From Planctomycetes bacterium GWA2_39_15 (GTDB lineage Bacteria; Planctomycetota; Brocadiia; Brocadiales; Brocadiaceae), in NCBI GenBank assembly GCA_001824485.1, contig MHXP01000208.1, positions 1 to 49,004 on the forward strand: 49,004 bases of DNA, given 5' to 3'. Positions 17,287-47,098 of the stretch are shown here, piece by piece (positions within the stretch are counted from its first letter, which is position 1; every line of letters begins with the position of its first letter). A program made the position numbers and the translations under genes. The notes under the pieces are model-generated. The model was not told the DNA's origin. It worked only from the letters and a program-made list of their open reading frames with translations, and did not search any database.

Positions 17287-17360
17287 TACTTCTTCCTACC
17301 CTACTAAATAAAAATGGAGGCAATGATAAGCCCCTGGTGGAAGGGGTTGAACTGTTACGC

Positions 17361-18335: not shown

Positions 18336-18464
18336 TTATAATAATGACTAACGTTACCTAAGCATATAATAATTATAGAACATAAAATTACACAACCATC
18401 AGGAGAACTATTCCGCACCGGAGTTTTTTAGATAAATGCCCCATACATTAAGTTAACTGTATCT

Positions 18465-20234: not shown

Positions 20235-20386
20235 CCCTTAAGCCTTTCTAATGCCTACAATGAAAGACATATGAAAATAAATTGTGGAATACTTATTGCG
20301 AATATCTATTCAATAATCTCCGGAAAGCAGGATGCTCCAATAAGAGTCTTAGTGTAACATTGCAAAACAAAACGAGAATATTCTAA

Positions 20387-22036: not shown

Positions 22037-22124
22037 TATAAGTACCTCCCTGAATAGAAAGTCAACTTTTTAGTAACTGGATCAATAATGACATCCTAGT
22101 CTTTCATCTTAACAAGAACTTCCA

Positions 22125-23183: not shown

Positions 23184-23371
23184 ATGGATCTCTTTTTTAA
23201 CCCAAAAACCGCTAAAAATTTAAATTTCCATTACGTAAAACTGTTTGAAGTTCAATGTAATTATTTAAAATTGCATTCTTATCCATTCCAAAACCTTCTT
23301 TGATGTTTTTAAGAACGAATTCAATCATTGCTAGGATTGTGTTGCTTTATAGGTGAAAAATTGTATGTTGT

Positions 23372-26641: not shown

Positions 26642-27555
26642 CCATAAGTTGTTTTCAGTCCCTCTTCAAGGGTAGTTGATGGTTTCCATCCCAAGTTCAA
26701 GAATTTTGAACTGTCCAATAGTTTTCTGGATGCACCATCCGGCTTGCCTGTATCCCATTCAATCTCCCCTTTGAATTCTACAATCCGTGACACAATTTCA
26801 GCAAGCTCTCTTATTGAATAGTCAATTCCTGTCCCTAAATTGTACTGGGTATTCTGAAATCTTCCTGCATTTTTCATGGCAAAGACAGAGGCATCAGCCA
26901 CATCTTTGCTGAAAATAAATTCCCTTCTTGGATTTCCACTCCCCCACAGTATGACCTTATCCCACCCTCCGATTTTTGCCTCGTGAATTTTTTTTATCAA
27001 AGCAGACAATACATGGGAGTTTTCCAAATCAAAATTATCCATTGGTCCATACATTGAATTGGGGATGAGGGCAATAAAACGATTGGTTTTATATTGATTA
27101 TTATAGGACTTGCATGCAATTATGCCTACAATCTTTGCGGCTGCATAGGCATCGCTTGTATCCTCTATCTCTCCTGTCAGCAAATATTCCTCTTTTATTG
27201 GCTGTAGACAATTCTTAGGATAAACACATGATGAGCCGTAGAAAATGAGGTGTTTTACATTATATGTATGAGATGCCTGAAATATATTGTCCTGAATGGC
27301 AATATTCGTATGAAGGAATGTTGCTGGATAGGTTTTATTGGCTATTATGCCCCCTGTTAATCCGGCGCAGAGGAATACATACTCAGGCTGCTCTTTTTTA
27401 AAAAAATCCTCTACTGATTTCTGGTCTATTAAATCAAGCTCCTTATGAGTTATAGTTAATATATTACGATACCCTTCTGATTTTAATCTCTTTAATATTG
27501 CCGACCCTAATAAACCTGTATGCCCTGCAACATAAATCTTTGAGTCTTTAAACAT
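26608..27555 (-). CDS. GDP-L-fucose synthase-like (Fcl/ColC-type) NDP-4-keto-6-deoxy-sugar epimerase/reductase
   Basis: KIYVAGHTGLLGSAI (Fcl-type GHxGxxGS), YAAAK, NLGTGIDYSIRELAE. 315 aa. Confidence 0.75.
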   Translation of the reverse strand: MFKDSKIYVAGHTGLLGSAILKRLKSEGYRNILTITHKELDLIDQKSVEDFFKKEQPEYVFLCAGLTGGIIANKTYPATFLHTNIAIQDNIFQASHTYNVKHLIFYGSSCVYPKNCLQPIKEEYLLTGEIEDTSDAYAAAKIVGIIACKSYNNQYKTNRFIALIPNSMYGPMDNFDLENSHVLSALIKKIHEAKIGGWDKVILWGSGNPRREFIFSKDVADASVFAMKNAGRFQNTQYNLGTGIDYSIRELAEIVSRIVEFKGEIEWDTGKPDGASRKLLDSSKFLNLGWKPSTTLEEGLKTTYGWYSKNIPKTA

Positions 27556-28486
27556 TACTATACTTACTGTTTGTAATTATCCTATACCCCTTGATGAGTT
27601 CCCTGATTCCCATATCAAGCGAATACATAGGACTAAACCCGGTCTTTTCAATCTTTTCATTAGAAACAATATAATCCCTTTTATCGGGATCCTCCCCTAT
27701 CGGTGACTCTAAATACACAAAATCAGGAATAAGGTCTTTTATTTTTGCGCATAGATCAAGCTTTGAGAGATTGGCATCAGACAAACCCACATTATACGGT
27801 TCGTTTTTCATCTTATCAAAGTTATCAATCGCATGGATAAACGCCCTCGCAACATCGCGAATATGGATATAATTCCGTTTGAAATGCCCTTCAAAGATTA
27901 CAACGAATCTATCATTTATTGCCCTATATGTGAAATCATTCACGAGCAAATCAATCCTCATCCGTGGAGACATGCCAAAAACCGTAGCCAACCTAAAACT
28001 TATAGAGTTTCCTCTGTCGAGTACAATTTTCTCCGCCTCAACCTTTGCCTTTCCATATAAAGAAATTGGTTTCAATGGGGTGGTCTCAGTACAGCAAATA
28101 CCCTTCTGGCCAACGCCATACCCACTGTTTGTGGTAGGTATAATTATTCTTTGTTCCTTTGATGTAAGCTTTACCAGGGAAGCCACTGCATTTACAATTG
28201 TGGTCTTAGCGCCTATTTTATCCCTGTTACAGAGTGGAGCTCCAACTAATGCTGCCAAAGGAATAATATAGTCCACATTTTTTAATAAGGTTTTTAATGT
28301 CTCCTCGTCCCTTGCGTCTTCCTTAACGACATCAAAATTTTCATAAACGCAACACTCAAGCAAAGAGTTTTGACCATACATGAAGTTGTCTAAGACCGTA
28401 ACCTTGTGACCAAGCCTCAATAATTCAGGAACCAGCACTGAACCCAAATATCCTGCACCGCCGGTAACTAAGATATTATACGACAT
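27548..28486 (-). CDS. NAD-dependent sugar epimerase/dehydratase (extended SDR)
   Basis: ILVTGGAGYLGSVL and YGKAK. Paralog-like to 42706..43737 (LAALVGAPLC versus LAAIVGDIPC). Confidence 0.8.
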   Translation of the reverse strand: MSYNILVTGGAGYLGSVLVPELLRLGHKVTVLDNFMYGQNSLLECCVYENFDVVKEDARDEETLKTLLKNVDYIIPLAALVGAPLCNRDKIGAKTTIVNAVASLVKLTSKEQRIIIPTTNSGYGVGQKGICCTETTPLKPISLYGKAKVEAEKIVLDRGNSISFRLATVFGMSPRMRIDLLVNDFTYRAINDRFVVIFEGHFKRNYIHIRDVARAFIHAIDNFDKMKNEPYNVGLSDANLSKLDLCAKIKDLIPDFVYLESPIGEDPDKRDYIVSNEKIEKTGFSPMYSLDMGIRELIKGYRIITNSKYSNV

Positions 28487-28531
28487 TTAATTTCCCCCTC
28501 CTAACCCAGGCAAGCCAGAGCCAAATTAATT

Positions 28532-28970
28532 TTTACCACGAAGGACACGAAGATTTATAAAACAAATCTTTTGATCCCATCTTTCAATACCTTCTCATTA
28601 AAGTTCATTAATAAACCTATCTTTATATTCGCTAACCTCATATATGTAAGCAACTGGGCTTCATGCACAGGGGCTATCTTATCAACACTCTTTAATTCTA
28701 ATATTAATTTATTTTCTATTAGCAGGTCTATCCGATAACCGCAAGAAATAAGAATGTTTTTATACTTTACAGGTAATTCCACCTCCATTTAAAAATTAAT
28801 TTTAGCCTGACTCAATTCATAGGCAAGGCATTGTTTATATGTATTTTCTAACAAACCAGGACCAAGTTCTCGATGAACTTCAATTGCCAATCCAATTACT
28901 TTATTAGATAACTCATCAAATTCCATAATTCCACTACTTCCTTAGTGTGCTTCGTGTTCTTCGTGGTAAA
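28532..28970 (-). mobile_element. 439-bp unit: GxxExxY gene bounded by 21-bp terminal inverted repeats
   Basis: 28532..28552 is tttaccacgaaggacacgaag. The reverse complement of 28950..28970 is tttaccacgaagaacacgaag (20/21 match). The unit carries its own RBS (aaggaag) upstream of the ATG at 28926. Confidence 0.5.
28555..28926 (-). pseudogene. GxxExxY-family gene interrupted by a single in-frame TAA
   Basis: My translation from the ATG at 28926 is MEFDELSNKVIGLAIEVHRELGPGLLENTYKQCLAYELSQAKINF-TAA(28791..28789). It continues in the same frame into the track ORF MEVELPVKYKN..(28555..28788). Together these form a full-length family member of about 123 aa. Confidence 0.75.
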
Positions 28971-29009
28971 TTTTATTTCCATTTTGCGCAACAGTTTATT
29001 TGTAAGGTA

Positions 29010-30212
29010 CTAAATATCTTTTAATGTCTTATGCAAATAATCTATCTTATCTCTTATATCATAAGGATGATTCCCTACAAAAAATCCATTATAATGGGCT
29101 ATGTCAGCATTTGTTGACCTGGTAACAATATGATCATAATATTTAATAACATCGTGTCTTAAAATATTTCCACCTGTTATAATCCTATGTTCAATACCAG
29201 CATCTTTTAACTTCTGCAACACACTTTTACGATCAATTTTTGAATTTGGATTAAGTATCATTGTAAAACAGAACCACGAACTTTCACCTGTTTCTTTCTG
29301 AATAATAAATCTCTCATCATTTTGAAAAAACTTCACAAAGTGTCTCGCATTCTCTCTTCTGGTTTTTACAAAACCTTCTAATTTATCTAATTGCCTTATA
29401 CCTATAGCGCCATGCATTTCACCTGGTCTCAAATTATATCCCGGCAGTATGAAACGGTATGCCTCAAAGAAATCATCCTCTCTTCTTTGGAAAATAGAAC
29501 TATCTTCATCCTGTCCTCGTGTCCAGCCATGGTTCCTGAGGGATTTCAAAATATTATAAATCTCCTTATCATTCGTAAGAACAAGGCCGCCTTCCATGGT
29601 AGATATATGATGAGAAAAAAACGTACTAAAGGTATTAACTAAACCAAATGTGCCAGTATACCTGCCATTAAATTTTGCCCCCATTGATTCGCAATTATCC
29701 TCAAGCAAAATTATATTATTTTTTTCGCAAATCTTTATTATCTCATCAAACTGGCAGGAATTTCCCAAAATACTGACAGCAACAATCATTTTAGTATTTT
29801 CAGTTATAGCCTTTTTTAATTCCTCTACATCATAGTTTAAAGTATGCAAATCAATATCAACAAATTTTAATTTTAGTCCATACTGGTGAAGCGGATGAAA
29901 GGTCGTTGACCACGAAATGCATGGGGCAATAACCTCATCACCTCTTTTTAAAGGATTTTCTTTTTTATAAAAAAGCGAAGCCACAGCAATGAGATTTGCT
30001 GAAGAGCCGGAATTAACCATCACAGCATATTTCATCCCAAAATATTTTGCGAATTTATCTTCAAACTCTCTTACTTTCTCACCCATGGTATACATACCGC
30101 TCTTCATCACTTCCAAAACTGCCTGCTCCTCCTCTTTACCCCATGTTGAACTAGTAAGTTCAAATCTCATCTCCACTTTATCTCCCATTTTGATAACTTG
30201 GTTTATAAACAA
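29010..30212 (-). CDS. ColD/E1-type PMP-dependent NDP-4-keto-6-deoxy-sugar 3-dehydratase (DegT fold with the PLP Lys replaced by His)
   Basis: FSTFFSHHISTMEGG aligns with MSFHAAKVMTTIEGG of the bona fide aminotransferase at 41554..42669, placing His where Lys sits. End-to-end resemblance to ColD as I recall it (SSTW.., SGSSANL, LLEDNCESMGA, HGWTR, LPGYN.RP, ETGESSWF). The track start is a TTG; ATGs at 30188 and 30170 are more likely. Confidence 0.75.
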   Translation of the reverse strand: MFINQVIKMGDKVEMRFELTSSTWGKEEEQAVLEVMKSGMYTMGEKVREFEDKFAKYFGMKYAVMVNSGSSANLIAVASLFYKKENPLKRGDEVIAPCISWSTTFHPLHQYGLKLKFVDIDLHTLNYDVEELKKAITENTKMIVAVSILGNSCQFDEIIKICEKNNIILLEDNCESMGAKFNGRYTGTFGLVNTFSTFFSHHISTMEGGLVLTNDKEIYNILKSLRNHGWTRGQDEDSSIFQRREDDFFEAYRFILPGYNLRPGEMHGAIGIRQLDKLEGFVKTRRENARHFVKFFQNDERFIIQKETGESSWFCFTMILNPNSKIDRKSVLQKLKDAGIEHRIITGGNILRHDVIKYYDHIVTRSTNADIAHYNGFFVGNHPYDIRDKIDYLHKTLKDI

Positions 30213-31182
30213 TAATTTCTGAACCGCTAAAATCGAACATAAAAGGTATGTGTAAATACCCTTTTAACGCTTTCTTCACTCTTTTCTGTGCCTCCGGTTC
30301 AATATATAAAAGCATAAAACCTCCTCCTCCAGCACCTAGCAATTTACCTCCTACTGCACCATGCCTTATAGCGGTTTCATAAATATGGTCAATTTCGCTG
30401 TTACTAATTTTACTCGATAGTTGCTTTTTTAATTCCCAGGACTCATTTAATAGCTTCCCAAATTCAATAAAATTGCCCTTACTCGAAATAATTACCTTGT
30501 ATGCTTCATCAACCAAATCCCTTATTGCTTTCAATTCATATTTTTTTTCATTAATACTTTGAATTTGCTCTTTAGCTATTTCAGATGCATATCTTGATAT
30601 TCCCGTAAAAAAAAGCATAAATTTACTTTCAAAACTTCTTAAATTATTCTTCTCCATTATTATTGGTTCAACTATAATATTGCCGGTTCTTAGAAACTCA
30701 ATAGTATTAACCCCCCCACAAGCAGCCCAAGCCTGGTCCTGAGAACCTACATTTTCTTTTAGCAAATTCTGTTCAATATGAATTGCCGTCTTGTAGAGAT
30801 CTTCCTTTGAAATAATCTTGCCGTTAATCGCATACAGAGTTTTTAGAAGCCCTACCGTGAAAGCAGAACTTGAACCCATACCAGAACGAGCAGGTATGTC
30901 GGCGTCATGATGAATTTCAAGTCCTTGTTCAACTTGTAAATATTTTAATGTTTCCCTAACCGACGGATGCTGAATTTCATCTATATTAGATACCGTCTCT
31001 ACCTTTGAATACGCAACTCGAAACCTATGCGCGAAAAAAGGTGGCAGTTCCCGGCATGTTATGTAACAGTATTTATCTATTGTTGCACCTAAAACCTTAC
31101 CTCCATGTTCCAGATACCACGAAGGATAATCTGTTCCTCCCCCGAAAAACGAAATTCTATGTGGAGTTCTTGAAATAATCAT
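30178..31182 (-). CDS. GHMP sugar kinase, HddA-like (D-glycero-D-manno-heptose 7-phosphate kinase type)
   Basis: RTPHRISFFGGGTDYP and the GHMP motif PARSGMGSSSAF. 334 aa. Adjacent to a nucleotidyltransferase gene. Confidence 0.7.
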   Translation of the reverse strand: MIISRTPHRISFFGGGTDYPSWYLEHGGKVLGATIDKYCYITCRELPPFFAHRFRVAYSKVETVSNIDEIQHPSVRETLKYLQVEQGLEIHHDADIPARSGMGSSSAFTVGLLKTLYAINGKIISKEDLYKTAIHIEQNLLKENVGSQDQAWAACGGVNTIEFLRTGNIIVEPIIMEKNNLRSFESKFMLFFTGISRYASEIAKEQIQSINEKKYELKAIRDLVDEAYKVIISSKGNFIEFGKLLNESWELKKQLSSKISNSEIDHIYETAIRHGAVGGKLLGAGGGGFMLLYIEPEAQKRVKKALKGYLHIPFMFDFSGSEIIVYKPSYQNGR

Positions 31183-31188
31183 ATTCCG

Positions 31189-31890
31189 TCACTTTAAATA
31201 AAACACCAATTCCTTCTTTGCTCTTTCATAATCTTCTGGAATTCCAATGTCGATAAAATAATCATTACTAATATATGAAAACACATTTATTTTCTTTGCA
31301 ATTTTTTGTATGAAGTCTCTTTCAAAAGAAAATTGGTTTCCAAATTCATCAATAATACTTGAAATAACTTTACTATTTATTATGTAAATACCTCCGTTAA
31401 TATACCCAAAACTATTGCTAGCCTTTTCTTCAAATTGTACTATTTTGTCATTCTGTATAATTACGGCCCCATACCTACTACAATTTTCCGTTGCCTTTAC
31501 AGCAATTGTTAAATTTGAACTTTTCCCCCGATGGAAATCATACATTTCAGAGAGATTAATACAAAAGAATGTATCACCATTCAAAACTATAACATTATCG
31601 TCACTAACATATTTTAAAGCTTCCCGAATCGCACCTCCTGTTCCCAAAGGTATTGTCTCAAAAACATATCCTATTTCGATATTTTTATATCTAAAACCAA
31701 AATAATTTTCTATAGCCTCATGCTTGTAGCAAACCGAAAGCAAAACCTTCTTTACTTTCTGGTTTATTAAATAATCCAGTAGAAACGATAAAAATGGTCT
31801 TCCATTTATATCTGCCATTGGTTTTGGAACATTTTTCACAATACTCTGAAGTCTTGTTCCAAAACCGCCTGCCAAAATTATTACCTCCAT
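31189..31890 (-). CDS. sugar-1-phosphate nucleotidyltransferase, HddC-like
   Basis: MEVIILAGGFGTRL .. VPKPMADINGRPFL. 233 aa. Confidence 0.8.
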   Translation of the reverse strand: MEVIILAGGFGTRLQSIVKNVPKPMADINGRPFLSFLLDYLINQKVKKVLLSVCYKHEAIENYFGFRYKNIEIGYVFETIPLGTGGAIREALKYVSDDNVIVLNGDTFFCINLSEMYDFHRGKSSNLTIAVKATENCSRYGAVIIQNDKIVQFEEKASNSFGYINGGIYIINSKVISSIIDEFGNQFSFERDFIQKIAKKINVFSYISNDYFIDIGIPEDYERAKKELVFYLK

Positions 31891-31894
31891 AAAA

Positions 31895-31900
31895 ATTATA
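31895..31900 (-). promoter_or_regulatory. candidate -10 box (perfect TATAAT) 4 nt upstream of the ATG of 31189..31890; possible leaderless start
   Basis: The minus-sense sequence reads GAGTATAATTTTTATG. There is no SD and the -35 is poor. A 168-bp gap lies upstream. A chance match is plausible in AT-rich DNA. Confidence 0.2.
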
Positions 31901-32058
31901 CTCTTTGCAAAAAAGTTAAGTTATATTTACTGTTTTCTGTTAGTTGAAGATGATGCAGATTTGAATTGTTTTAACTATACTAGCATCTTAAGACTTCTGC
32001 GAAATTCCCACTGCCGCAAAATCAAAATATCTTAATCGCACCAAATTTTGTGGTAAGC

Positions 32059-33459
32059 CTAAAAGGATTTACTTTGGCTTGCACCTCTATAATATTGTGT
32101 TTTTATTAATTTGTCTTTTTCTAAACCTAAATTTAGTTTTTCATTGCACCGTTGCAAACCATTGACAACATGCGCTGCAAATTCCTCATCGCTCATTTGA
32201 GTCATATTTACTCTTAAATCCTGCCTATCACCTAATCTTAACAGATACGATTCTTCGTCTTCAATAAAACCATGCCTTACAGCATAATCATACATCTGGC
32301 TGCCAGGCAGCGGAAGAAGGTATCCTGTGGATGGGTAAATGTTATTTTCTATACATGCATCAAATGTTTTCTTTATTGTTTCAGGGGTCTCTTGGGGATA
32401 TCCAAATACAACAGTAGTCCATGTTTGAAGCCCCGCTTTTTGAAGTAATCTTGTTTGCTTAGAAAATTGATTCACAGGAATCCTTCTTTTCATCTCCCTC
32501 AAAATATTAGAATCGGCAGACTCAAGACCATAACATAACCCTAAACAACCGGCTTCTTTCATGTTTTCAATCATAGGCATATCTGCCTCATCATCAAAAA
32601 GGTTGGGCCGGCAGTTTGCCATCCAATAAAATTTGGCTTTTTCATTAAGAATTTTTTCAACGAACTCCAGTGTGTGTTTTTTAGAAGACAAAGCTAAATC
32701 ATCCCAAAATATAACGAAATTTATTGAGTATTTTTCAATAAGAGACTTTATTTCGGTAACAATTGATTCTGAAGTTCTGCGTCTATACGGCATATCTTGG
32801 AATATATGATAGCAAAAAGTGCATTTTGCAATACAACCTCTTGCAATACTTACTTGTAATGCTCTTATTTCCTCTCTTGGAATTGGTAATGGATCGTTGA
32901 TTCGCTGTTTGGTGCCATCTATATATATTTCTAAATCAAAAAGAGAATAATTCATGAAAGGCAAAGATGAAATATCTTTGATCAAAGGCCTTGGAGGAGT
33001 ACAAACCACGTTGCCATCCTTCATAAAGCAAATACCACAGACTTCCTCAAGAGGTTTGGATTCTGAAAGTTTCCGAAGTATGTCGACAATAGTCTCTTCA
33101 CCCTCACCAATTACTGCTATGTCAACTTTCGTACGTCTAAGTAGCGTATCAAAAACTGATGTAGCTACAGTGTTGCCTACAATAATTTTAGAATACGGGT
33201 GACATTTCTTAATTAGAGCTGCAAGTGATTTAATTATCCTATAACCCGTAACAACGGTACCCATGCAAATTACATCATATTTTCTCCCTCTGATAAATTG
33301 CTCTATTTGTCCATCTGTGTATCTATAAGCATTAATATCCAGCAAATCAAAATCAAAACCCGCATTTTTCATTGCTGTAGTAATATATCCCAAACCAACA
33401 GGAAATAACTTTACGGGTGATTCTGGTCTTAAACAAATATTAATAACTAAAATATTCAT
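32059..33459 (-). CDS. B12-binding-domain (class B) radical SAM enzyme
   Basis: VIGEGEETIVDIL. IARGCIAKCTFCYH. 466 aa. RBS gaaaggaag 6 nt upstream of the ATG. Confidence 0.85.
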   Translation of the reverse strand: MNILVINICLRPESPVKLFPVGLGYITTAMKNAGFDFDLLDINAYRYTDGQIEQFIRGRKYDVICMGTVVTGYRIIKSLAALIKKCHPYSKIIVGNTVATSVFDTLLRRTKVDIAVIGEGEETIVDILRKLSESKPLEEVCGICFMKDGNVVCTPPRPLIKDISSLPFMNYSLFDLEIYIDGTKQRINDPLPIPREEIRALQVSIARGCIAKCTFCYHIFQDMPYRRRTSESIVTEIKSLIEKYSINFVIFWDDLALSSKKHTLEFVEKILNEKAKFYWMANCRPNLFDDEADMPMIENMKEAGCLGLCYGLESADSNILREMKRRIPVNQFSKQTRLLQKAGLQTWTTVVFGYPQETPETIKKTFDACIENNIYPSTGYLLPLPGSQMYDYAVRHGFIEDEESYLLRLGDRQDLRVNMTQMSDEEFAAHVVNGLQRCNEKLNLGLEKDKLIKTQYYRGASQSKSF

Positions 33460-33520
33460 AATAGCTTCCTTTCAAAACTTATTGTAATGTACTGCTCCCA
33501 CTACCTATATTTCCTTTCTA

Positions 33521-33549
33521 ATTATCATCAGATTTAAAAATTTATTCAA
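33521..33549 (-). promoter_or_regulatory. candidate sigma70-type promoter for the rSAM gene 32059..33459
   Basis: Minus sense reads TTGAAT-17 nt-GATAAT (-35 at 33549..33544, -10 at 33526..33521), about 60 nt upstream of the ATG. AT-rich context, so a chance match is possible. Confidence 0.25.
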
Positions 33550-33667
33550 TCCCCAATAATGTGATATAATTATTATACTTGTAACAGTAAATTGAGAGCC
33601 ATCATTAATGATAAGTTTTAAACATTTTCCCTTATTCACATCCATTGAGAATAACGATTATGCAAGC

Positions 33668-35524
33668 TTATTTTCTCATACTATAATTTCCACTAAAGTT
33701 AATAACTTTATTCCCACCCCACTTTTCAGCATATTTAATATTGGCTTTATTTATTACTTCACCCCAGCTTAATCCATCATCAAATCCTTTTAAACACCAT
33801 TTGAAGTATTCACCCATTCTCTTGCCTCCGTCCCCATCCCTAAATGGATCAAGCAAATCCAAAAAAGGTCCCCAATCGCCAATGTCGAGATTTGAATCAG
33901 GGTTTATTTTAAAAGACTTAATTGCTGCAATCATCTTCTCTAGATCATTAAATATAAACCGTTCATAACCCCATTTGTAAAATACATGATTCCTATGATA
34001 TGTCATATCATAATGTATACCTCTACATCCAGCAATAACCGCTTCTACAACTGCCGAAGAAATACCACAACCTACAGCTATATCAGCACCAAAAGAAGCG
34101 TCTGATGGGAAACGTCCAAGCTCGTTTTCCAATTTTATACACCGCCCACTTTCTATTGCCTCGATAAATAAAGGATGAATTGTTGTAAGATTATTAATAA
34201 CAAAAGGTTTTTTCGATTTAATAATCAAACCAATTGTCGAATCATCAAGCATCAATTGCAAAAATGATTGATAAAATTTAGCCATGCTATTCATTGAGAA
34301 TTGCAAATCAGGCCCACACATGCTATCAAATAATGCTATTATAAACTTGACTCCTTTTGACCTTAGTTTCTGACAATAATTTTCATACTTCTGGTAAATA
34401 TTATTTGTAAAACCTGAAACAATACATATTGCCTCTCGGCCATAATTATGTTTGAAATAATTTTCCCCTCTTTCATTCCAAATGAACAATACATGCTTTG
34501 GATTTGGATTAACACCTATAAAAGAAGTCGGTTGATAAAGAAACTCTGATCTTTGTTTACCAGCAAGAAATCCAGACATTCCATTTTTTATATCAAAAGC
34601 AATCGCTTGCGCTATATTTTTTGCCATACCTTCTTCTGGCGTATAGTTAATCTTAATATTAAAATCATCGTAAAAAGAGCACCAAAAATGAACTTGTTTT
34701 ATCAAATCATTAGCAACCTTGATGATCCAGGCTTCTATCTTATTTTGTACTACACCTTTCTCAAATAACATATTCTTTAATATTCTAGATGGTTGCCAAT
34801 AGTTTTTCTCATTTCCTTCGATAATTCCCTTTTCTAAAGAAACCCAATTAAATCTTTGGCATTCAATTTTTTGAATAATTTTTCTTCCAATAGATTTGCC
34901 CCTAGAGGAGTTGATATCGAAATAAATTAAAATCCGTTCTGGTTCTACGCCACTTTCAAAATACCAATTCAGATCATTCCTTCGCGAAGGATCGATTCCT
35001 TCACTATAATGACAGGCAATAGTTCCACATTGGTTAACGTGAAAAGGAAGATAATTATTCTTTCTAAATTTAATAGAACTTTCACGAACTTTGTCGGAAT
35101 AGCTTTTCACGTTATCTTTTATTAGTTTTTTTAGTAAACTTCCGCTTGTGAAACCCAAGAATATTTGGTTTACCAATAAAATTGGAATATCCTCAAAATT
35201 CCAACATTCTTTAAGTAACATAAAAATACCTAACTTCGGCGCCTTAACTACACCTTCTTGAAGAGAAATTTCTTTACCATTGCGTTTGTACCATTTAATT
35301 ACACATGCTTGTCGCACAAATGGATAGATTTCTTGTTTCACAATATACTGAAAGTACATAAGAACACGCCGGCTCGGTAATATTTTAACTAATTGTTTAA
35401 AAATGTCGGTTGACTCAATACTATATGAAATATGAATAGCTAATTCCGAAGCTTTTTCTTCTACCTCATACTTCAAAACGTCACCATGAATTCCCCTCAT
35501 TTCACCAAGCTGGTATTCTAACAT
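33668..35524 (-). CDS. 618-aa orphan; putative GT-B-type transferase, third member of the orphan family
   Basis: C-terminal LIIKSKKPF ..(about 45 aa).. VGCGISSAVVEAVIAGCRGIHYD has the same layout as the KPHP..SxxxxEA..P blocks of 1292..3154 and 7168..9126. I recognise nothing in the N-terminal 400 aa. Confidence 0.5.
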   Translation of the reverse strand: MLEYQLGEMRGIHGDVLKYEVEEKASELAIHISYSIESTDIFKQLVKILPSRRVLMYFQYIVKQEIYPFVRQACVIKWYKRNGKEISLQEGVVKAPKLGIFMLLKECWNFEDIPILLVNQIFLGFTSGSLLKKLIKDNVKSYSDKVRESSIKFRKNNYLPFHVNQCGTIACHYSEGIDPSRRNDLNWYFESGVEPERILIYFDINSSRGKSIGRKIIQKIECQRFNWVSLEKGIIEGNEKNYWQPSRILKNMLFEKGVVQNKIEAWIIKVANDLIKQVHFWCSFYDDFNIKINYTPEEGMAKNIAQAIAFDIKNGMSGFLAGKQRSEFLYQPTSFIGVNPNPKHVLFIWNERGENYFKHNYGREAICIVSGFTNNIYQKYENYCQKLRSKGVKFIIALFDSMCGPDLQFSMNSMAKFYQSFLQLMLDDSTIGLIIKSKKPFVINNLTTIHPLFIEAIESGRCIKLENELGRFPSDASFGADIAVGCGISSAVVEAVIAGCRGIHYDMTYHRNHVFYKWGYERFIFNDLEKMIAAIKSFKINPDSNLDIGDWGPFLDLLDPFRDGDGGKRMGEYFKWCLKGFDDGLSWGEVINKANIKYAEKWGGNKVINFSGNYSMRK

Positions 35525-35555
35525 AATCCTTTACATCATATACAAAGTACACATT

Positions 35556-36944
35556 TCAGGTTTGACGAAATCCTCTAAAACTCGTATTCCTTTCTGAATA
35601 GAGTTTTTTTGATTGTTCAAGGTAATTTAATAATTTTTTATTAAAATAATTTGTAAACAATTTTTTGTTTGCTTCAAAAAGACACTGATGAAATTCATCA
35701 TCATCCATATCTGTAAAATTAATCGCCAATAAATCCGAATTGGTATGCTTATTTTCATAAAAATCAGCACAGTCTCTAAGAAGTCTTTTTCCAATAGCAT
35801 AATAATAAAGCGGTGAACCTGGATAAGGGGTTACAGGCCGGATAGTCCGCATTTGAGCACCATCATCATATTTCAATAAAAAATCTACACCCTTCTTTAT
35901 AGTTTCTTTATTATCACCTATATTGCCAAATATAATATTAAAGCCAGGGCTTATTCCAGCATTTAAAGTAGCTTCTATACCATTAATAATTTGTTCTGTT
36001 GTTAAGCCCTTTTTCATATTTTTCAGTACCTGATCATCCATGGCTTCAATTCCATAATTGATAAACACACAACCTGCCTTTCGCATTAGCTTTAAGACTT
36101 CTGGCTTGGCATAATTTAATCTACCATTACAGTCCCATTTTATATTTAATTCTGCCTTGACAAAATCTTCACATAAACTTATAGTCCTTGAAATTGATGA
36201 CATTAGTAATTCATCAGAAAACGCTATATAAGTAATACCATAATTCCATTTTAAAAATTTTATTTCTTCGATAATACTTCCATTACTACGAGGTCTAAAA
36301 CCTTCATCCATGCGATAGCAAAAACTACATTCAAAAGTACATCCTCTACCAGATAAAACAGGCATTATAAAATCACTATTTACTGCATGTGGCATACGTA
36401 AAAGTCTATAATATTCTATAGGAAATAATTCATAAGCGGGAAAAGGAATGGAATCTACATCTTTTACTAGGTTTCGTCGCTCATTTATAATAATCTTATC
36501 TTCTTCACGAAAAGCTATTCCTTTTACAGAAGTTAAAGCTTTATTATTGCCAACAGCCTTCATTAATTCAATAATTGTTTCTTCTCCTTCTCCAATAACA
36601 ACCGCATCAGCTTGAGTTTTCCTAAGAAAAAACGCAGGTTCAGGAGAAGGACCATGCCCGCCAATTATATAAAAAGGCCTTTGCTTAGATTTATTTATTG
36701 CATCAGAAATTTTTAACAACTTTCTGTACTGATAATATCCTGCTATAACACTTATCCCGACAACATCAAACTTATTTTTGTTTAAATACTCTGTTAAATG
36801 CTCATCAGGATAATGATTCATATCTTGGCTATAAACCTCTATTTCATATCCATTCTTCTGTAGCACAGAGGCAACATATGCTAATCCTTGGGGAAACCAA
36901 TGTACATACGATTCATTATCATATACAACCAGTAAGATTCTCAT
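35556..36944 (-). CDS. B12-binding-domain (class B) radical SAM enzyme
   Basis: VIGEGEETIIEL. SGRGCTFECSFCYR. 462 aa. Most similar in length and layout to 32059..33459. Confidence 0.85.
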   Translation of the reverse strand: MRILLVVYDNESYVHWFPQGLAYVASVLQKNGYEIEVYSQDMNHYPDEHLTEYLNKNKFDVVGISVIAGYYQYRKLLKISDAINKSKQRPFYIIGGHGPSPEPAFFLRKTQADAVVIGEGEETIIELMKAVGNNKALTSVKGIAFREEDKIIINERRNLVKDVDSIPFPAYELFPIEYYRLLRMPHAVNSDFIMPVLSGRGCTFECSFCYRMDEGFRPRSNGSIIEEIKFLKWNYGITYIAFSDELLMSSISRTISLCEDFVKAELNIKWDCNGRLNYAKPEVLKLMRKAGCVFINYGIEAMDDQVLKNMKKGLTTEQIINGIEATLNAGISPGFNIIFGNIGDNKETIKKGVDFLLKYDDGAQMRTIRPVTPYPGSPLYYYAIGKRLLRDCADFYENKHTNSDLLAINFTDMDDDEFHQCLFEANKKLFTNYFNKKLLNYLEQSKKLYSERNTSFRGFRQT

Positions 36945-37167: not shown

Positions 37168-39003
37168 TTATTTCTCTGTCCTTTTTGATACAAGGGTATT
37201 ACTATTGATGTATAAATGACCTAGGCCTGATGACCCAAATGTTCTTAATGCATCTGAGATATCGTTGACTATTGGCTCACCATGAAGATTAAAACTTGTA
37301 TTGAGAAGCGCAGGAATTCCTGTCAATTTATAAAATTCCTCTATAAAATTATAAAATTCAGGTGTATGTTCTTTTGATACATATTGCGGACGGACAGTTT
37401 TATCGTAAGGGTGTGTCCCAGCATATATATTATAATATGAATCAGGCAGAGTATTAAAGGCCAGGCTCATAAAAGGAGCTTTTAATTTTTTGGGGTTATA
37501 AATATATTTATCTGCACAATCTTCAAGAATAGATAGAGCAAATGGCATCCAGAAATCCCTGTTTTTAATGGCTTCATTAATTTTCATTACAATATCTCTT
37601 TTGCTGGGGTCAGCTAGTATACTACGGTTACCCAAAGCTCTTGCTCCGAATTCTGCACGACCATCTATTTTAGCTATTATATTCCCATTTGCAATTAAAC
37701 TTGCCACAGCAGAATACGTCACTCCATGCCTAACAATATAATCCCTACATATTGGTTCCCAATCAATTTTGTTAATCTCATCCTTAATATCACAACCAAG
37801 ATAAAGATTCTTTAAATATTTATTATTCTTGTTCTTTCGGTTTAAATAATAACAACCTCCTATACTTGTTGATTCATCAGATCCAGAGCCGCATACAAAA
37901 AGCGAAGAGACACAATTTAGTTCTGATACTGCTTTATTCATTTTAACATTCATGGAAATTCCACCACTGATTACAAAACATTTAATACCAGTTTCCATAT
38001 AGATATTCTCAATTAGTTCTTTTGCTAACTTCTCTGTATATTTTTGAATTGCACCAGCAATACTATCAAAACGGTATTCAGCCCATTTATCCCTTAAATA
38101 GGTAAATAAATCGACTGGTCTATTATTATGGACAATCTTCATTCCATCTACCATCAAAATGTCTTTAATGACTTCCATAGCTCTATCAACATTAAGCGCT
38201 TTTGCATATGGAGCAAGTCCCATTACCTTATACTCGTGTTCATCAGGACGCATTCCCAAAATTAAAGTAGCCATCTTATACAATCGTCCTATATCACTCT
38301 GATCAGATTCTACAATCATAGTCAGCTCATCGTTTGAAGCTTTCCATACTGTCTGATTACGGCCATCACCCCAACTATCAAGAGTCACAACAATACAGTC
38401 TTCTTTACGAAAAGGACTACCAAAATAACCATAATAAGCATGGCACGCATGATGATCAACAAATTCAATCTTATCTGGAGAAATGTTTAAATGTGTAGCA
38501 AGTGTTCTTTTCCGTTCCTGACGAAACAATTCTTCATCCAATTTGTTATCACTTAAAACTTGATCATTTAAATAAGAAAAATCAAAGTACTGCTCATCAA
38601 TATTAAACTTTTCAGAATCCCGTAACCACCTCAAATAATCAAGACAATCTTCTCCCTTTAATTTGCGGCCATAATATCTCTCACCATAGTAACCTAGATA
38701 ATCTCTAATCGAAAATTGCGTAAAATGTTTTGATTTAATGGGAATACTCGAAAAATTTATCGTTGTATATGCAACATGCGCCAGGTCGCTACCTTTAACA
38801 TTTCCTTTATTTAAACAATAATCAATGGCTCTTCTCGGATAACCAGTATAATTTTTTTTACCACAAAATCTTTCCTCTTGAACTGCTATGATTATTTCTC
38901 CATCCATCATAAGTGCAGAGGAGGCATTATGACCACAATGAACAGCAAGAATATAGGTATGTTTACTAGGCATATTTTTACTTTTAATCACCATGCAGAC
39001 CAA
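37168..39003 (-). CDS. NodU/CmcH-family carbamoyltransferase
   Basis: ILAVHCGHNASSALMMDGEIIIAVQEERF at the N-terminus and LNTSFNLHGEPIV near the C-terminus. About 600 aa. The ATG at 38973 (MPSKHTY..) is a likely start and avoids the overlap. Confidence 0.85.
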   Translation of the reverse strand: MVCMVIKSKNMPSKHTYILAVHCGHNASSALMMDGEIIIAVQEERFCGKKNYTGYPRRAIDYCLNKGNVKGSDLAHVAYTTINFSSIPIKSKHFTQFSIRDYLGYYGERYYGRKLKGEDCLDYLRWLRDSEKFNIDEQYFDFSYLNDQVLSDNKLDEELFRQERKRTLATHLNISPDKIEFVDHHACHAYYGYFGSPFRKEDCIVVTLDSWGDGRNQTVWKASNDELTMIVESDQSDIGRLYKMATLILGMRPDEHEYKVMGLAPYAKALNVDRAMEVIKDILMVDGMKIVHNNRPVDLFTYLRDKWAEYRFDSIAGAIQKYTEKLAKELIENIYMETGIKCFVISGGISMNVKMNKAVSELNCVSSLFVCGSGSDESTSIGGCYYLNRKNKNNKYLKNLYLGCDIKDEINKIDWEPICRDYIVRHGVTYSAVASLIANGNIIAKIDGRAEFGARALGNRSILADPSKRDIVMKINEAIKNRDFWMPFALSILEDCADKYIYNPKKLKAPFMSLAFNTLPDSYYNIYAGTHPYDKTVRPQYVSKEHTPEFYNFIEEFYKLTGIPALLNTSFNLHGEPIVNDISDALRTFGSSGLGHLYINSNTLVSKRTEK

Positions 39004-39776
39004 CCACCATCAACCATAATCGCCTGTCCAGTAATATAAGATGCGGCGTCTGAACAAAGGAATAAAACAGGTCCTGCTATATCCTCTGGACTTGCCATCC
39101 TGCCCATAGGGGTTAGTTTTACATATTTTTCAATAAATTTTGGATCCTGATTGTTAAAAATACCGCCTGGGCAAATCGCATTTACCCGAATATTGTATTG
39201 GGCATAATACGTAGCGAGATATTTTGAAAAATTAACTATCCCACCTTTAATAAGAGAATAAGCGGCAGGCATTGTCATTTGTGTACCTTCGTAAACTGAA
39301 AAATTAGGACCCAGGACACCATAGTGAGAACCAATGTTTAACAGGACTCCTGTTCCCCTTTTTTTCATTTCATTCAAGACTTTTTGACAGCATATAAAAT
39401 ACCCATTCATGTGCATATCAACGTTCCTTCTCAGGGAATCAGAAGAAATATCCTCAAATTTATTGCCCCAATCGGACGTCCTTGGGTATGCATTATTAAT
39501 CCATATATCAATCTTTTTGTCCTTGTTTATCACCTCAAAAATGGCGGACTCGATTAAACTTTCATTTGTAATATCCATTTTGACGAAATCAGCATTTAAA
39601 CCGTTGTTTTTCATTTCAGTGCATAATTTCTTCCCACGTTCATCGTCAACTTCTGCAATATAAACCTTGGCACCGGCTTCAGCTAAGGCAAGGCACAAAC
39701 TCTTCCCAATTAACCCGGCGCCTCCTGTAACAACTGCTACCTTATTAATAATCTGAAATCTTTCTGGGAATATCAT
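38988..39776 (-). CDS. classical short-chain dehydrogenase/reductase
   Basis: VAVVTGGAGLIGKSL (TGxxxGxG), NNAY (NNAG-like), YSLIK (YxxxK). 262 aa. Confidence 0.85.
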   Translation of the reverse strand: MIFPERFQIINKVAVVTGGAGLIGKSLCLALAEAGAKVYIAEVDDERGKKLCTEMKNNGLNADFVKMDITNESLIESAIFEVINKDKKIDIWINNAYPRTSDWGNKFEDISSDSLRRNVDMHMNGYFICCQKVLNEMKKRGTGVLLNIGSHYGVLGPNFSVYEGTQMTMPAAYSLIKGGIVNFSKYLATYYAQYNIRVNAICPGGIFNNQDPKFIEKYVKLTPMGRMASPEDIAGPVLFLCSDAASYITGQAIMVDGGWSAW

Positions 39777-40471
39777 TTCTTTTCTTTCATAAAATATTCA
39801 ACTAACTTAAAATCCACCTCGCTGTCAATATCAATTGATCTTTCTTCCGGCATCGCAACGAGTTTAACCTTACCTGCGACAACATCAGTTTGATTAAATA
39901 AAACATCTGTCTTCCAAATATAAACTGATGCGTTCATCGCATAAACTACTGGCGCATCCTGCCTTCTTACAATTTGTTTTTCTGGTTTTTTACTTAAACA
40001 AGCAAAACCATCAGAATTTATTTCTACCATATTAAAATAAGGGTTTTTATTTGACTTGTAACCTGTTATAACCAAATCACAATTACAATCGTTCATAATC
40101 AAATTCAGGCATTTTTCTATATCTTCAGATGTTCTCAAGGGTGACGTTGGATCTAAATCAATCACATAGTTGGGATTAAAATTCAGGTTTTCAACATAAT
40201 ATTTAATTGCATGCTTTATAACGGGTAATTTAGATGCTTCATCTGTAGCTAAAAACTGGGGTCTCATAAATGGGACTTCAGCGCCGTATTGTTTTGCTAC
40301 ATTTGCTATCTTTTCGGAGTCGGTTGAAACAACAACACGGTTAATAAGTCTGTTACTTAAAGCCTGTTCTATTGTATAAGCGATTAGTGGTTTGCCTAAT
40401 AAGTTCTTTATATTTTTACCTGGCACACCTTTCGAACCACCCCTTGCACATATAGTACATAACACACTCAT
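39773..40471 (-). CDS. CMP-nonulosonic-acid synthetase-type cytidylyltransferase (NeuA/LegF/PseF family)
   Basis: CTICARGGSKGVPGKNIKNLLGKPLIAYT is the canonical loop. 232 aa. Confidence 0.85.
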   Translation of the reverse strand: MSVLCTICARGGSKGVPGKNIKNLLGKPLIAYTIEQALSNRLINRVVVSTDSEKIANVAKQYGAEVPFMRPQFLATDEASKLPVIKHAIKYYVENLNFNPNYVIDLDPTSPLRTSEDIEKCLNLIMNDCNCDLVITGYKSNKNPYFNMVEINSDGFACLSKKPEKQIVRRQDAPVVYAMNASVYIWKTDVLFNQTDVVAGKVKLVAMPEERSIDIDSEVDFKLVEYFMKEKK

Positions 40472-40472
40472 T

Positions 40473-41456
40473 TTATAAGTTCTTTTTTATCTCCAGACAC
40501 GTTTTTAAAATATAAATTGCATCTTCCAAATCACATCTGGGTTTTTCTTCACCGGAAATACATTTAATAAAATGCTTCATCGCATCAATATACATCTGGT
40601 TATTATCATAATTAGTTAGATCCAGGAGCATCTTATACTTTTGTTGTTCAAAATCATAAAATTGTAAATATCTATCACCGAAACAATAATCTATTGATCC
40701 TTTTGAACCCTGTATTTGTATTGTTCTCTTAGATGGTCTTTGCAAATAATCCAAGTGTATTTCAAGTAGCTGACCAGACTCCATCTCAGCTATAATCGAA
40801 GCAACATCTTCCACATCAATTTCTAAATTGCTTATTTTCTTTACATAAGACTTAATGTTTTTATACTTACCAAACAACCAATATGCATAGTCAATTTCAT
40901 GTTGGAGAGTTAATACTACCCCACCGCCCAATTCACTCCTTGCGCTATAGCCCCTCCTGTAATCCTCCCATGGATGCCAATCTGGAAGATATTGTCCAAC
41001 TTGGATCCTGGCAAAATATATGGTTCCAAATTCATTGTTCTTAATGAGGCTCTTGATACAAAGTAGAACGGGATGGAATCTAAAATTGTTTGCCAGAAGA
41101 AAAACCAGACCTTTCCGGAACAAGTTCATCTTTAATTCTTCTAACCCATTTAAATTATGCGATAACGGTTTTTCCATAAAGATATGGCAGTTTATATTTG
41201 CGGCTATCATTGCAAATTCAATGTGCTTAGAAGTTGGGTTTGCAATAACAAAGGCATCCGGCTTTTTCCCCTTAATTCTTTCCAAACTATGAAAAGTTTC
41301 TATTCCGTATTTTTGCTTAAATTCTGCGTCTTTATTATCGTCAGAAAATTCAGAGAAAGCAATTATATCACTATAAGAAAGGAATTTAAGGTTTTTTAAG
41401 TGTCTGGTTCCAATTGACCCACGACCGACTAAGCAGAACTGTAAATTATTTTTCAT
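40473..41456 (-). CDS. Gfo/Idh/MocA-family oxidoreductase
   Basis: FCLVGRGSIGTRHL Rossmann start and the FMEKPLS (EKP) motif. 327 aa. Confidence 0.8.
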   Translation of the reverse strand: MKNNLQFCLVGRGSIGTRHLKNLKFLSYSDIIAFSEFSDDNKDAEFKQKYGIETFHSLERIKGKKPDAFVIANPTSKHIEFAMIAANINCHIFMEKPLSHNLNGLEELKMNLFRKGLVFLLANNFRFHPVLLCIKSLIKNNEFGTIYFARIQVGQYLPDWHPWEDYRRGYSARSELGGGVVLTLQHEIDYAYWLFGKYKNIKSYVKKISNLEIDVEDVASIIAEMESGQLLEIHLDYLQRPSKRTIQIQGSKGSIDYCFGDRYLQFYDFEQQKYKMLLDLTNYDNNQMYIDAMKHFIKCISGEEKPRCDLEDAIYILKTCLEIKKNL

Positions 41457-41553
41457 TACGCTGATAACTAATAATTTTATGCTGCTTTTCTCTCTGCAAT
41501 TTTTTATCTATATTTTTCCCTGTTTATTTTGTTTTTTAATAAAATCGAGATTT

Positions 41554-42669
41554 TTACTTTTCGATTTCTTTAAAAATAGCTCTACATACTTGCTCAATCA
41601 TATCATCCGTCATAGAAGGGAAGATTGGTAAATTCAATATCTTTGAGGTTACTTCTTCTGCAATTGGACATTCCATCTTTCGATATTTTAACTTTCCAGA
41701 AGCAAAAACCTCTTGTTTATACAGCGGCATGGGATAGGCAATACGTGTATCAATACCGTATTTTTCACGAAGTACATAGGAGACTCTATCTCTATCTTCA
41801 ACAAGAATGGGATAAAAAAAATATGCATTTTTACAATCGACTCTTTCCTTAGGAAAAAATATTTTATCTTTACTTTGAGAAAACAATTTATTATATTTTT
41901 CTCCCACCCTTCTTCGCTGTTTTATAAAAACAGGTAATTTCTTAAATTGAGCTAAGCCAATACCCGCCGTTAAATCGGTCATTCGAGCATTAGTTCCAAG
42001 CGTTATATGTATATACTTCCCGCCTTTTGATTCTCCTTGATTTCTTCTTGACAAAATATCTTCTTTAAGAGACTCGTTGTGAGTAAAAATCATGCCACCT
42101 TCGATAGTCGTCATTACTTTGGCCGCATGGAAGCTCATAGTCGAGGTTTCTGTTTGTGCCCCCATCGGCCTACCTTTATAAAAAGCCCCTAATGATTGGG
42201 CTCCATCTTGTAAGACTTTAATGTTATATTTTTGCCCAACTTTGGCTATAGCATCATAATTTGATGGATTTCCACCATAATCTATGAAAATAATTGCTTT
42301 TGTCTTCTCCGTAATAGCTTCTGGAATGCGGTCTGGGTCCAAATTGAAAGTTTCTTTCTCAATGTCAACAAAGACTGGAACTGCATTTTGATAACTTACT
42401 GATGATGCTGTTGCAAAATAGGTCATTGCAGGAACAATTACCTCATCGCCGGGTTCTACACCTATTGCCTTCAGTACCAAATCTAAAGCAACTGTCCCAT
42501 TTGAAATGGCAATAGCATATGGAACTTCTAAAAAAATAGAAACTTCATGTTCTAATTTGTTCACTTTAGGCCCCATTGTAAGCCAATTTGACTTAAAAGA
42601 ATCAATTACTTCATTTAACTCTTCTTCGCCTAATTCTGGTTTAGCCCAAGGAATTTTAATTTTTTTCAT
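41554..42669 (-). CDS. DegT/DnrJ/EryC1-family PLP sugar aminotransferase
   Basis: ISNGTVALDL and MSFHAAKVMTTIEGG with the PLP lysine present. 371 aa. Confidence 0.85.
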   Translation of the reverse strand: MKKIKIPWAKPELGEEELNEVIDSFKSNWLTMGPKVNKLEHEVSIFLEVPYAIAISNGTVALDLVLKAIGVEPGDEVIVPAMTYFATASSVSYQNAVPVFVDIEKETFNLDPDRIPEAITEKTKAIIFIDYGGNPSNYDAIAKVGQKYNIKVLQDGAQSLGAFYKGRPMGAQTETSTMSFHAAKVMTTIEGGMIFTHNESLKEDILSRRNQGESKGGKYIHITLGTNARMTDLTAGIGLAQFKKLPVFIKQRRRVGEKYNKLFSQSKDKIFFPKERVDCKNAYFFYPILVEDRDRVSYVLREKYGIDTRIAYPMPLYKQEVFASGKLKYRKMECPIAEEVTSKILNLPIFPSMTDDMIEQVCRAIFKEIEK

Positions 42670-42705
42670 TTTTTAATGATTACCTTTTACCCTTAAATTA
42701 TTTAA

Positions 42706-45046: not shown

Positions 45047-45078
45047 TTTAAAAGGTAAAAAACTTAAAAATATATATA

Positions 45079-45951: not shown

Positions 45952-45958
45952 TTTCTAT

Positions 45959-47008: not shown

Positions 47009-47098
47009 GTTGTTTTTCTTAACTCCGGTATCTAAAAAGGAATATAATCCAAAACCCAAAAATAGATTTTAAACCCAAGATATCTTTTTAAAGTATAG

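Follow-up and report, generated by a model that had tools for sequence, protein, structure and literature searches.

The 49,004-nt stretch of DNA analysed here (the window; contig MHXP01000208.1 of Planctomycetes bacterium GWA2_39_15) contains an unannotated gene for a 618-aa protein that is placed between two genes for class B radical S-adenosylmethionine enzymes (rSAMs), rSAM5 and rSAM4, within a cluster of glycan genes. Open reading frames (ORFs) were called across the window and domains were assigned by Pfam and NCBIfam scans; the minus strand carries every domain-bearing ORF of at least 100 aa. Along this strand, a carbamoyltransferase gene is followed by rSAM5, the 618-aa gene and rSAM4, and then by genes whose best NCBIfam matches are the heptose proteins HddC and HddA, although under the curated cut-offs. 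This placement, and the gaps of 31 nt and 208 nt on the two sides of the 618-aa gene, are as described in a first-pass annotation of the DNA. The two flanking enzymes are also, as stated there, the most similar pair among the five B12-binding rSAMs (B12-rSAMs) of the window, but only barely (they score 197 bits at 28.9% identity, and the runner-up pair 191 bits), and they are not recent duplicates. A second arrangement, in which two rSAM genes enclose a gene for a family 2 glycosyltransferase (GT2) of the TIGR04440 type, lies at 20387–24841. To the first-pass annotation the repeated pattern suggested a functional unit, in which two radical enzymes tailor the donor or the product of a transferase. 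Our comparison of related loci leads to a different account, in which the triad is a juxtaposition across the boundary of two glycan modules and the 618-aa protein is a predicted GT-B-fold enzyme that probably serves the upstream module.

Genes encoding homologs of the 618-aa protein were collected with their neighbours, comprising 20 loci from species-representative genomes, 80 from metagenomes, 3 with precomputed Pfam annotation and the locus of the closest relative (L112). A permutation test, in which gene order was shuffled within each non-redundant locus, showed that a B12-rSAM gene lies directly upstream of the homolog more often than expected (13/38 loci, 4.8 expected, P ~5e-5), whereas the downstream position is not enriched (2/37, 3.6 expected, P 0.90). 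None of 34 non-redundant loci has a B12-rSAM on both sides. The remaining 25 of the 38 loci have no B12-rSAM directly upstream, contrary to the expectation that homologs would always stand beside class B rSAMs. Among 41 loci that are non-redundant at 90% identity, the gene directly upstream is an rSAM5 ortholog in 10 (and in one more across a small ORF), a CMP-sugar synthetase in 6, another B12-rSAM in 3, a SPASM-type rSAM in 2 and a carbamoyltransferase in 1, and the homologs adjacent to rSAM5 fall in at least five separate places on a neighbour-joining tree. The pairing with an upstream radical enzyme is therefore a genuine, enriched feature of the neighbourhood, though a facultative one; to this extent the suggested pairing is supported, while its downstream half is not.

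The 618-aa gene is the last gene of what we call module A, the core of which encodes a pathway for a nonulosonic acid (NulO) of the legionaminic or pseudaminic type. Besides the CMP-NulO synthetase, for which the best NCBIfam match is PseF-like, the core includes a 4,6-dehydratase, a NeuB-type synthase (NCBIfam NeuB_NnaB, 403.7 bits, above the cut-off), an AP_endonuc_2 protein, two PglD-like acetyltransferases, two short-chain dehydrogenases/reductases (SDRs), one of them with a PtmA-like best match, a DegT aminotransferase and a GFO (PtmF-like) oxidoreductase. Module A is collinear with the corresponding genes of L112 at 62–94% identity, and the 618-aa proteins of the two loci are 71% identical. 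Between the PtmA-like SDR gene and the 618-aa gene, however, L112 has genes for a methyltransferase, a SPASM-rSAM and a GFO oxidoreductase in the place that the carbamoyltransferase and rSAM5 take in the window. Beyond the 618-aa gene, an HddC-like gene begins 9 nt past the stop codon, rSAM4 is absent, and there is no B12-rSAM on either side. Across relatives the intervening genes vary among methyltransferase, SPASM-rSAM, oxidoreductase and sulfotransferase types, and a carbamoyltransferase ortholog stands directly upstream of the homolog in L004, L029 and L030. A variable tailoring slot thus lies between the CMP-sugar synthetase/PtmA-like SDR pair and the 618-aa gene, and in the window it is occupied by the carbamoyltransferase and rSAM5.

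On the other side, rSAM4 travels with a different set of genes, module B. A Nitrospirae metagenome-assembled genome contains a locus (L111, positions 465–15528) in which 13 genes are collinear with 15608–33459 of the window at 49–81% identity (Table 1), with rSAM4 at the head of the block and the second rSAM-GT2-rSAM arrangement included. No homolog of the 618-aa protein was detectable in this 21-kb locus. After rSAM4, module B continues with the HddC-like and HddA-like genes, an RfbH-like DegT gene, two SDR genes, a split transketolase, rSAM3, the GT2, rSAM2, an ATP-binding cassette (ABC) exporter and a methyltransferase. In L109 this order is partly rearranged, with the second triad disrupted, and rSAM genes are missing from L110. 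By its conservation pattern, rSAM4 appears to belong to module B, as its optional first gene, and not to pair with the 618-aa gene. The 208-nt gap would then mark the boundary between modules A and B, because synteny breaks there in both L111 and L112. Rfam at gathering thresholds gave no match anywhere in the window, this gap included, and neither promoter-like nor terminator-like sites were commoner around the triad, again with the gap included, than in shuffled sequence. The L111-collinear block also contains three B12-rSAMs and an Fcl-like SDR; module B resembles a pathway to a transketolase-branched, heavily tailored sugar of the GDP-heptose type, with its own GT2 and two further radical enzymes.

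Table 1 Features of the window and amino acid identity of module B proteins to those of L111.
Feature	Position	Strand	Basis	Identity to L111
Core of module A, legionaminic/pseudaminic-type NulO pathway	38988–48456	-	Pfam, NCBIfam, L112 collinearity	
CMP-NulO synthetase, module A core, beside PtmA-like SDR	39773–40471	-	best NCBIfam match PseF-like	
NodU/CmcH-type carbamoyltransferase, upstream of rSAM5, in variable tailoring slot	37168–39003	-	PF02543 + PF16861	
rSAM5, class B (B12-binding) radical SAM, 462 aa	35556–36944	-	PF02310 + PF04055, CxxxCxxC = CTFECSFC at residue 202	
Intergenic gap rSAM5/618-aa gene, 31 nt	35525–35555	.	ORF coordinates	
618-aa protein, predicted GT-B fold, soluble, last gene of module A	33668–35524	-	AlphaFold2, Foldseek, gene context	
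Intergenic gap 618-aa gene/rSAM4, 208 nt, putative module A/B boundary	33460–33667	.	synteny breaks in L111, L112	
rSAM4, class B (B12-binding) radical SAM, 466 aa	32059–33459	-	PF02310 + PF04055, CxxxCxxC = CIAKCTFC at residue 209	66%, heads collinear block
Rest of module B	15608–31890	-	Pfam, NCBIfam, L111 collinearity	
HddC-like				68%
HddA-like				73%
DegT				80%
First SDR				81%
Second SDR				73%
Transketolase N half				72%
Transketolase C half				63%
rSAM3	23372–24841	-	Pfam	76%
GT2, TIGR04440 type	22125–23183	-	Pfam, NCBIfam	49%
rSAM2	20387–22036	-	Pfam	71%
ABC exporter				53%
Methyltransferase				60%

The upstream enzyme is likewise not confined to the triad. The rSAM5 family comprises 120 or more clusters at ≥73% identity, almost every one of exactly 462 aa, and spans Nitrospirae, Omnitrophota, Thermodesulfobacteriota, Vulcanimicrobiota/Eremiobacterota, Schekmanbacteria and Actinobacteria; rSAM5 is much more conserved than the 618-aa protein next to it (80% compared with 56% identity in L001, for example). 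All four of the further rSAM5 contexts that were sampled (L104–L107) are NulO clusters in which no 618-aa homolog adjoins rSAM5, although one of them has a weak, distant match ~7 kb away. The genes around rSAM5 in these clusters form a legionaminic-type set (DegT, PglD-like acetyltransferase, NeuB, Epimerase_2, CBS-NTP_transferase, GFO, CTP_transf_3 and adh_short). The rSAM5 family is far larger than the 618-aa family and independent of the 618-aa protein. Because of the synteny with L111 and L112, the permutation result and these rSAM5 contexts, we read the triad as the meeting of three genes: the one that ends module A, one that occupies the tailoring slot of module A, and one that optionally opens module B. 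A conserved three-gene unit is not supported. Two rSAM-transferase-rSAM patterns would arise by random gene order with P ~0.001 (42 genes, of which 5 encode rSAMs and 5 are transferase-like), so the claim that they are not random accretion is borne out; their explanation, however, lies in cassettes arranged as modules, with a tailoring slot of variable content, and not in a recurring unit. The second arrangement is real, but it is no copy of the first, since the central proteins differ in fold (GT-B and GT2/GT-A) and the rSAMs are only 25–29% identical.

The 618-aa protein itself gave no match in Pfam or NCBIfam (E ≤ 0.01 for the latter) and had been regarded as an orphan with GT-B likeness limited to a C-terminal block. 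Neither description can be upheld. A word-indexed search with the protein returned 97 clusters at 90% identity, in Brocadiaceae, Planctomycetia, Omnitrophota, Saganbacteria, Thermodesulfovibrionales, relatives of Pelagibacter and others, and an exhaustive profile search (E ≤ 1e-3) found 2,387 representatives at 50% identity, 1,089 of them at E ≤ 1e-30. The family is thus widespread and uncharacterised; PF27878 is given for two distant members in precomputed annotations, and a sequence search of the PDB with the family profile yielded only spurious antibody light-chain matches (E ≥ 0.04). An AlphaFold2 model based on 58 homologs (predicted local distance difference test (pLDDT) 87.4, predicted template-modelling score (pTM) 0.89) exhibits strand/helix alternation in both halves. 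Foldseek gave 158 matches to this model in the PDB at E ≤ 1e-3, of which the best 50 listed are GT-B-fold proteins, with alignments of ~430–450 columns and E-values of 1e-8 to 1e-5. They include UDP-GlcNAc 2-epimerases such as NeuC, GT4 enzymes, MurG, the polysialyltransferase 5wc6/5wcn and OGT-type proteins. The protein is accordingly predicted to adopt a complete two-domain GT-B fold from about residue 90 onward, with two Rossmann-like α/β domains and a cleft between them, which agrees with the earlier view of the middle gene as encoding a transferase-type protein of a glycan cluster. No transmembrane segment was found, and the hydropathy peak corresponds to a buried strand and helix near residue 482.

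Conservation was counted over 58 sequences of the family. Invariant or nearly invariant residues are E175-G176, R182, D184, W187, R325-S326, K436-S-K438-K439-P440, D481, E494, D563 and R569. The K-S-K-K-P motif, which comes after strand 1 of the C-terminal domain, has K436 and K438 in 58/58 sequences, K439 in 57/58 and P440 in 51/58. E494 is present in 58/58 within the segment D-x-A-V-G-x-G-I-S-S-A-x-x-E494-A-V-I-A-G, and the glycine-rich loop and the E494 helix would, by analogy, correspond to the nucleotide-binding elements in the C-terminal domain of GT-B enzymes. In the N-terminal domain, E175 (54/58) and G176 (58/58) are preceded by A, V, T or S and might match the D/E-D/E-G motif of sialyltransferases.

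Gene context points to the NulO pathway. NeuB-type synthase and CTP_transf_3 (CMP-sugar synthetase) genes share clusters with 618-aa homologs, and the homolog is placed after the CMP-NulO genes in the window, L112, L001, L006, L007, L023, L033 and others; usually the homolog comes after the synthetase, and in some loci where the two are not direct neighbours only tailoring genes separate them. Often a flippase gene lies directly downstream of the homolog, Wzx-type in L021, L052 and L043 and ABC-type in L010, L012, L044, L045 and L046, or the next sugar module takes this place, usually of the order GFO-Ldh_2-rSAM1-CTP_transf_3-GT2. The window contains three unannotated proteins of ~620–650 aa, each encoded near its own CTP_transf_3 gene. 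On the strength of the GT-B fold, a gene position between the CMP-synthetase and flippases, the pairing with a synthetase and a precedent in Tannerella forsythia, we read the 618-aa protein as a NulO transferase. That it is the CMP-NulO glycosyltransferase of module A is the reading we favour, by a modest degree of confidence as regards both activity and donor, and the wider account, in which the window is a surface-glycan island of interchangeable modules, module A supplies this transferase and the triad is a boundary juxtaposition, we consider reasonably probable. What the analysis shows is the fold, the size of the family, the gene neighbourhoods and the breaks in synteny; the transfer of a sugar, the CMP-NulO donor and the chemistry of the two flanking rSAMs are inferred. 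The genes of module A would make a CMP-activated NulO with whatever tailoring the slot enzymes add; the 618-aa protein would move the tailored sugar from CMP onto a growing lipid-linked glycan at the cytoplasmic face, and a flippase would then export the NulO-bearing product.

The T. forsythia transferases for pseudaminic and legionaminic acid, Tanf_01245 and TFUB4_00887 (BFO_1060 family, NF046086), are GT-B/TagB-like and add the terminal NulO of a protein-linked glycan (PMC5420450). Their genes come right after the CMP-NulO locus; in strain UB4 a methyltransferase gene intervenes (PMC5420450). The 618-aa protein resembles them in being soluble, of GT-B type and free of transmembrane segments, and its gene likewise follows CMP-NulO genes with tailoring genes in between. 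It differs from them in length (618 compared with ~445 aa) and in carrying x-E-G and K-S-K-K-P where they have D/E-D/E-G and HP motifs, and the NF046086 model did not match it in the NCBIfam scan (E ≤ 0.01). With the polysialyltransferase 5wc6/5wcn (GT38) it shares a GT-B architecture of two Rossmann domains (Foldseek E ~5e-6), and, as for the GT-B bacterial sialyltransferases, a CMP-activated nine-carbon acidic donor and metal-independent chemistry would be expected. The 618-aa family, however, shows no sequence relationship to these enzymes and no HP motif, the TM-score is ~0.5, and an extra helical N-terminal region of ~160 residues sets it apart from the polysialyltransferase. FlmG flagellin NulO transferases consist of tetratricopeptide repeats (TPRs) and a GT-B domain that sets the donor specificity for pseudaminic or legionaminic acid (bioRxiv 10.1101/2022.03.25.485807). 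The 618-aa protein is comparable in its predicted cytoplasmic location and in having a helical N-terminal part before the GT-B domain, and helical-repeat GT-B proteins of the OGT/SPY type are among its Foldseek matches at low TM-score, but it has no TPR match in Pfam. Its loci contain flippases and not flagellar genes, which suggests a lipid-linked glycan as the acceptor. The MAF_flag10 family (PF01973) was not matched in Pfam either, and the Maf fold is GT-A-like, unlike the GT-B fold predicted here.

Several observations weigh against our account. Searches of Pfam, NCBIfam and the PDB link the 618-aa protein to no characterised family of glycosyltransferases or sialyltransferases at a significant level. 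Across the 58 sequences there is no conserved histidine, and no HP motif of the bacterial sialyltransferases (GT38, GT52 and GT80), in which the histidine contacts the CMP phosphate, at the position of K436–P440, a position that was located only by non-significant hhalign alignments to two other protein families of the window. The neighbourhood labels are based on ORFs called by ourselves and on phmmer comparison with window proteins and with NeuC and SPASM markers. The Foldseek list is headed by 2-epimerases and not by transferases, although the E-values are close; no canonical NeuC-type (PF02350) gene was seen in the window, L021, L023 or L112; and a homolog in L009 is fused to an adenosine 5′-phosphosulfate (APS) kinase and encoded beside an ATP-sulfurylase. 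Finally, the junction of the 618-aa gene and rSAM4 recurs in one other contig, L048. This junction, the low random probability of two such patterns, the upstream enrichment and the preservation of the second triad in L111 would all fit an obligate or physical partnership of the transferase with two rSAMs that tailor its donor or product, a unit that recurs at 20387–24841. We nevertheless regard such a partnership as very improbable, given that B12-rSAMs flank the homolog from both sides in none of the 34 other loci, that L112 has neither enzyme, that rSAM4 accompanies module B in L111 where the 618-aa gene is missing, that rSAM5 occurs in NulO clusters apart from it, and that the second triad has a central protein of another fold and is broken in L109 and free of rSAMs in L110.

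The fold-level matches raise the alternative that the 618-aa protein is a divergent NDP-sugar hydrolase or 2-epimerase equivalent to NeuC, LegG or PseG. NeuC, MnaA and WecB (PF02350) are its best matches of this kind (E ~1e-8, target-normalised TM-score ~0.6) and also occur in NulO clusters, and such an activity could account for the missing PF02350 gene in module A of the four loci named above. A canonical PF02350 gene, however, coexists with the 618-aa homolog in one cluster in L006, L007, L009, L014 and L020 and, according to a marker search, in L033, L039, L045, L047, L058 and L060. Moreover, the 618-aa gene follows the CMP-synthetase gene and adjoins flippases and is not among the early pathway genes, the protein is ~250 residues longer than these enzymes and does not match the PF02350 model, and, as the window stops at 49004, a NeuC gene could sit just upstream. 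These points make an epimerase function unlikely, although a pathway role retains a small probability in the four loci with no PF02350 gene in view. Transfer of a non-sugar or phospho-linked group to the NulO or the glycan, by TagF/TagB-like phosphodiester or sulfate-related chemistry, is about equally unlikely, or slightly more so. The basic K-S-K-K-P motif in place of HP, the description of the T. forsythia enzymes as TagB-like (PMC5420450), the L009 fusion with its neighbouring ATP-sulfurylase and the sulfotransferase genes that adjoin homologs in L002 and L027 would be compatible with it. But of the 58 family members scanned a single cluster has the APS-kinase fusion, the Glyphos_transf (TagF) model did not match, and most loci have no genes for 3′-phosphoadenosine 5′-phosphosulfate (PAPS) or CDP-alcohols. 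Because the sulfotransferases in L002 and L027 are canonical, glycan sulfation explains the PAPS genes better than a GT-B sulfotransferase does. With these alternatives weighed, the 618-aa proteins are a new and sizeable family within a known kind, the GT-B enzymes of glycan clusters, and most likely NulO transferases.

In L009 (7296–11698), a fusion gene for a pyruvate-kinase barrel, a PUA domain and ATP-sulfurylase precedes the APS-kinase::618-aa-homolog fusion, and the Sulfotransfer_3 genes are located at 11937–13361 in L002 and 3431–4429 in L027, which suggests that NulO-containing glycans are sulfated in some lineages. The AP_endonuc_2 gene of module A (45079–45951), encoding a xylose-isomerase-like TIM barrel, accompanies NeuB also in L021, L023, L105 and L112, and may mark a distinct subtype among NulO modules that have no PF02350 epimerase.

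C-methylation is the commonest chemistry of class B radical SAM enzymes. The two flanking rSAMs share the B12-binding domain, the radical SAM core and the CxxxCxxC motif with enzymes of this class that act on sugars or lipids (BchE, HpnJ, the ladderane-lipid rSAM, PhpK and AprD4), but their scores are far from those of the BchE, HpnJ, PhpK and AprD4 equivalogs, and both remain below every NCBIfam equivalog cut-off (~110–165 bits, with 360–750 needed). Against the models for characterised enzymes such as BchE, HpnJ, PhpK and GenK-like proteins, they reach 148–150 bits at best, where 481–578 would be required. rSAM5 is probably an accessory of the NulO pathway that tailors the sugar or its N-acyl group by C-methylation or another radical modification. 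Tailoring of the donor sugar by a radical enzyme is plausible because B12-rSAMs are enriched directly upstream of 618-aa homologs; a full-text literature search found no paper that ties a radical SAM enzyme to NulO tailoring. The S-layer glycan of the anammox bacterium Kuenenia is reported to contain NulO variants 14 Da apart (oxonium ions 261, 275 and 289) together with oligo-heptose chains (bioRxiv 10.1101/2020.12.03.409086). Both would fit the gene content of the window, although this correspondence is only a lead. A bolder and rather doubtful extension is that the 618-aa family comprises new, CAZy-unclassified CMP-nonulosonate transferases in which Lys-x-Lys-Lys-Pro replaces His-Pro, and which co-evolve with a swap-in tailoring cassette that in this lineage includes a B12-rSAM C-methylating the CMP-sugar. 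Were this so, the C-methylating cassette would be the genetic basis for the 14-Da NulO variants on the anammox S-layer glycan (bioRxiv 10.1101/2020.12.03.409086).

Transferases for sugars of the legionaminic and pseudaminic type are poorly known (PMC5420450). The 618-aa family, with >2,000 clusters at 50% identity and a place in the transferase position of NulO modules of uncultivated anaerobes, offers a concrete candidate that can be assayed. The comparison also flags a very conserved B12-rSAM family as a probable NulO-pathway accessory and reveals, immediately before the transferase gene, a tailoring slot with readily exchanged contents. More generally, when a domain pattern repeats within one window, the juxtaposition of modules can be its source, and the pattern need not be a functional unit.

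The other two of the three unannotated proteins also lack Pfam matches; that at 1292–3154 has a weak TIGR04326 match and that at 7168–9126 a weak match to the BFO_1060 family (NF046086, E 1.6e-4). They may be the transferases of other CMP-sugar modules. Paralogy of the 618-aa protein with either was considered, and BLASTP gave nothing significant; remote homology between its family and theirs likewise found no evidence, the hhalign probabilities being 0.1% and 2.5%. The region 7168–15589 constitutes a module of the order GFO, Ldh_2, B12-rSAM, (methyltransferase), CTP_transf_3, GT2::CTP_transf_3 fusion and 650-aa protein. This type of module recurs in L002–L005, L021–L023, L031, L037, L047 and L052, often directly after the 618-aa gene, and relative to such loci module B looks, by gene order, as if it had been inserted in the window.

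Two smaller differences from L111 were noted within module B. Genes for a DUF559 (endonuclease-like) protein and an aldo/keto reductase (16812–18335) lie between the ABC exporter and the methyltransferase, which are adjacent in L111; in L038 and L052 it is the rSAM1 module that the reductase accompanies. The DegT and SDR genes are 523 nt apart in the window, compared with only 75 nt in L111, and this gap contains two abutting ORFs of 45 and 77 aa in the same frame (28555–28926, minus strand), separated by one in-frame stop; read jointly, they resemble what we take to be a small protein of the GxxExxY / PD-(D/E)XK type.

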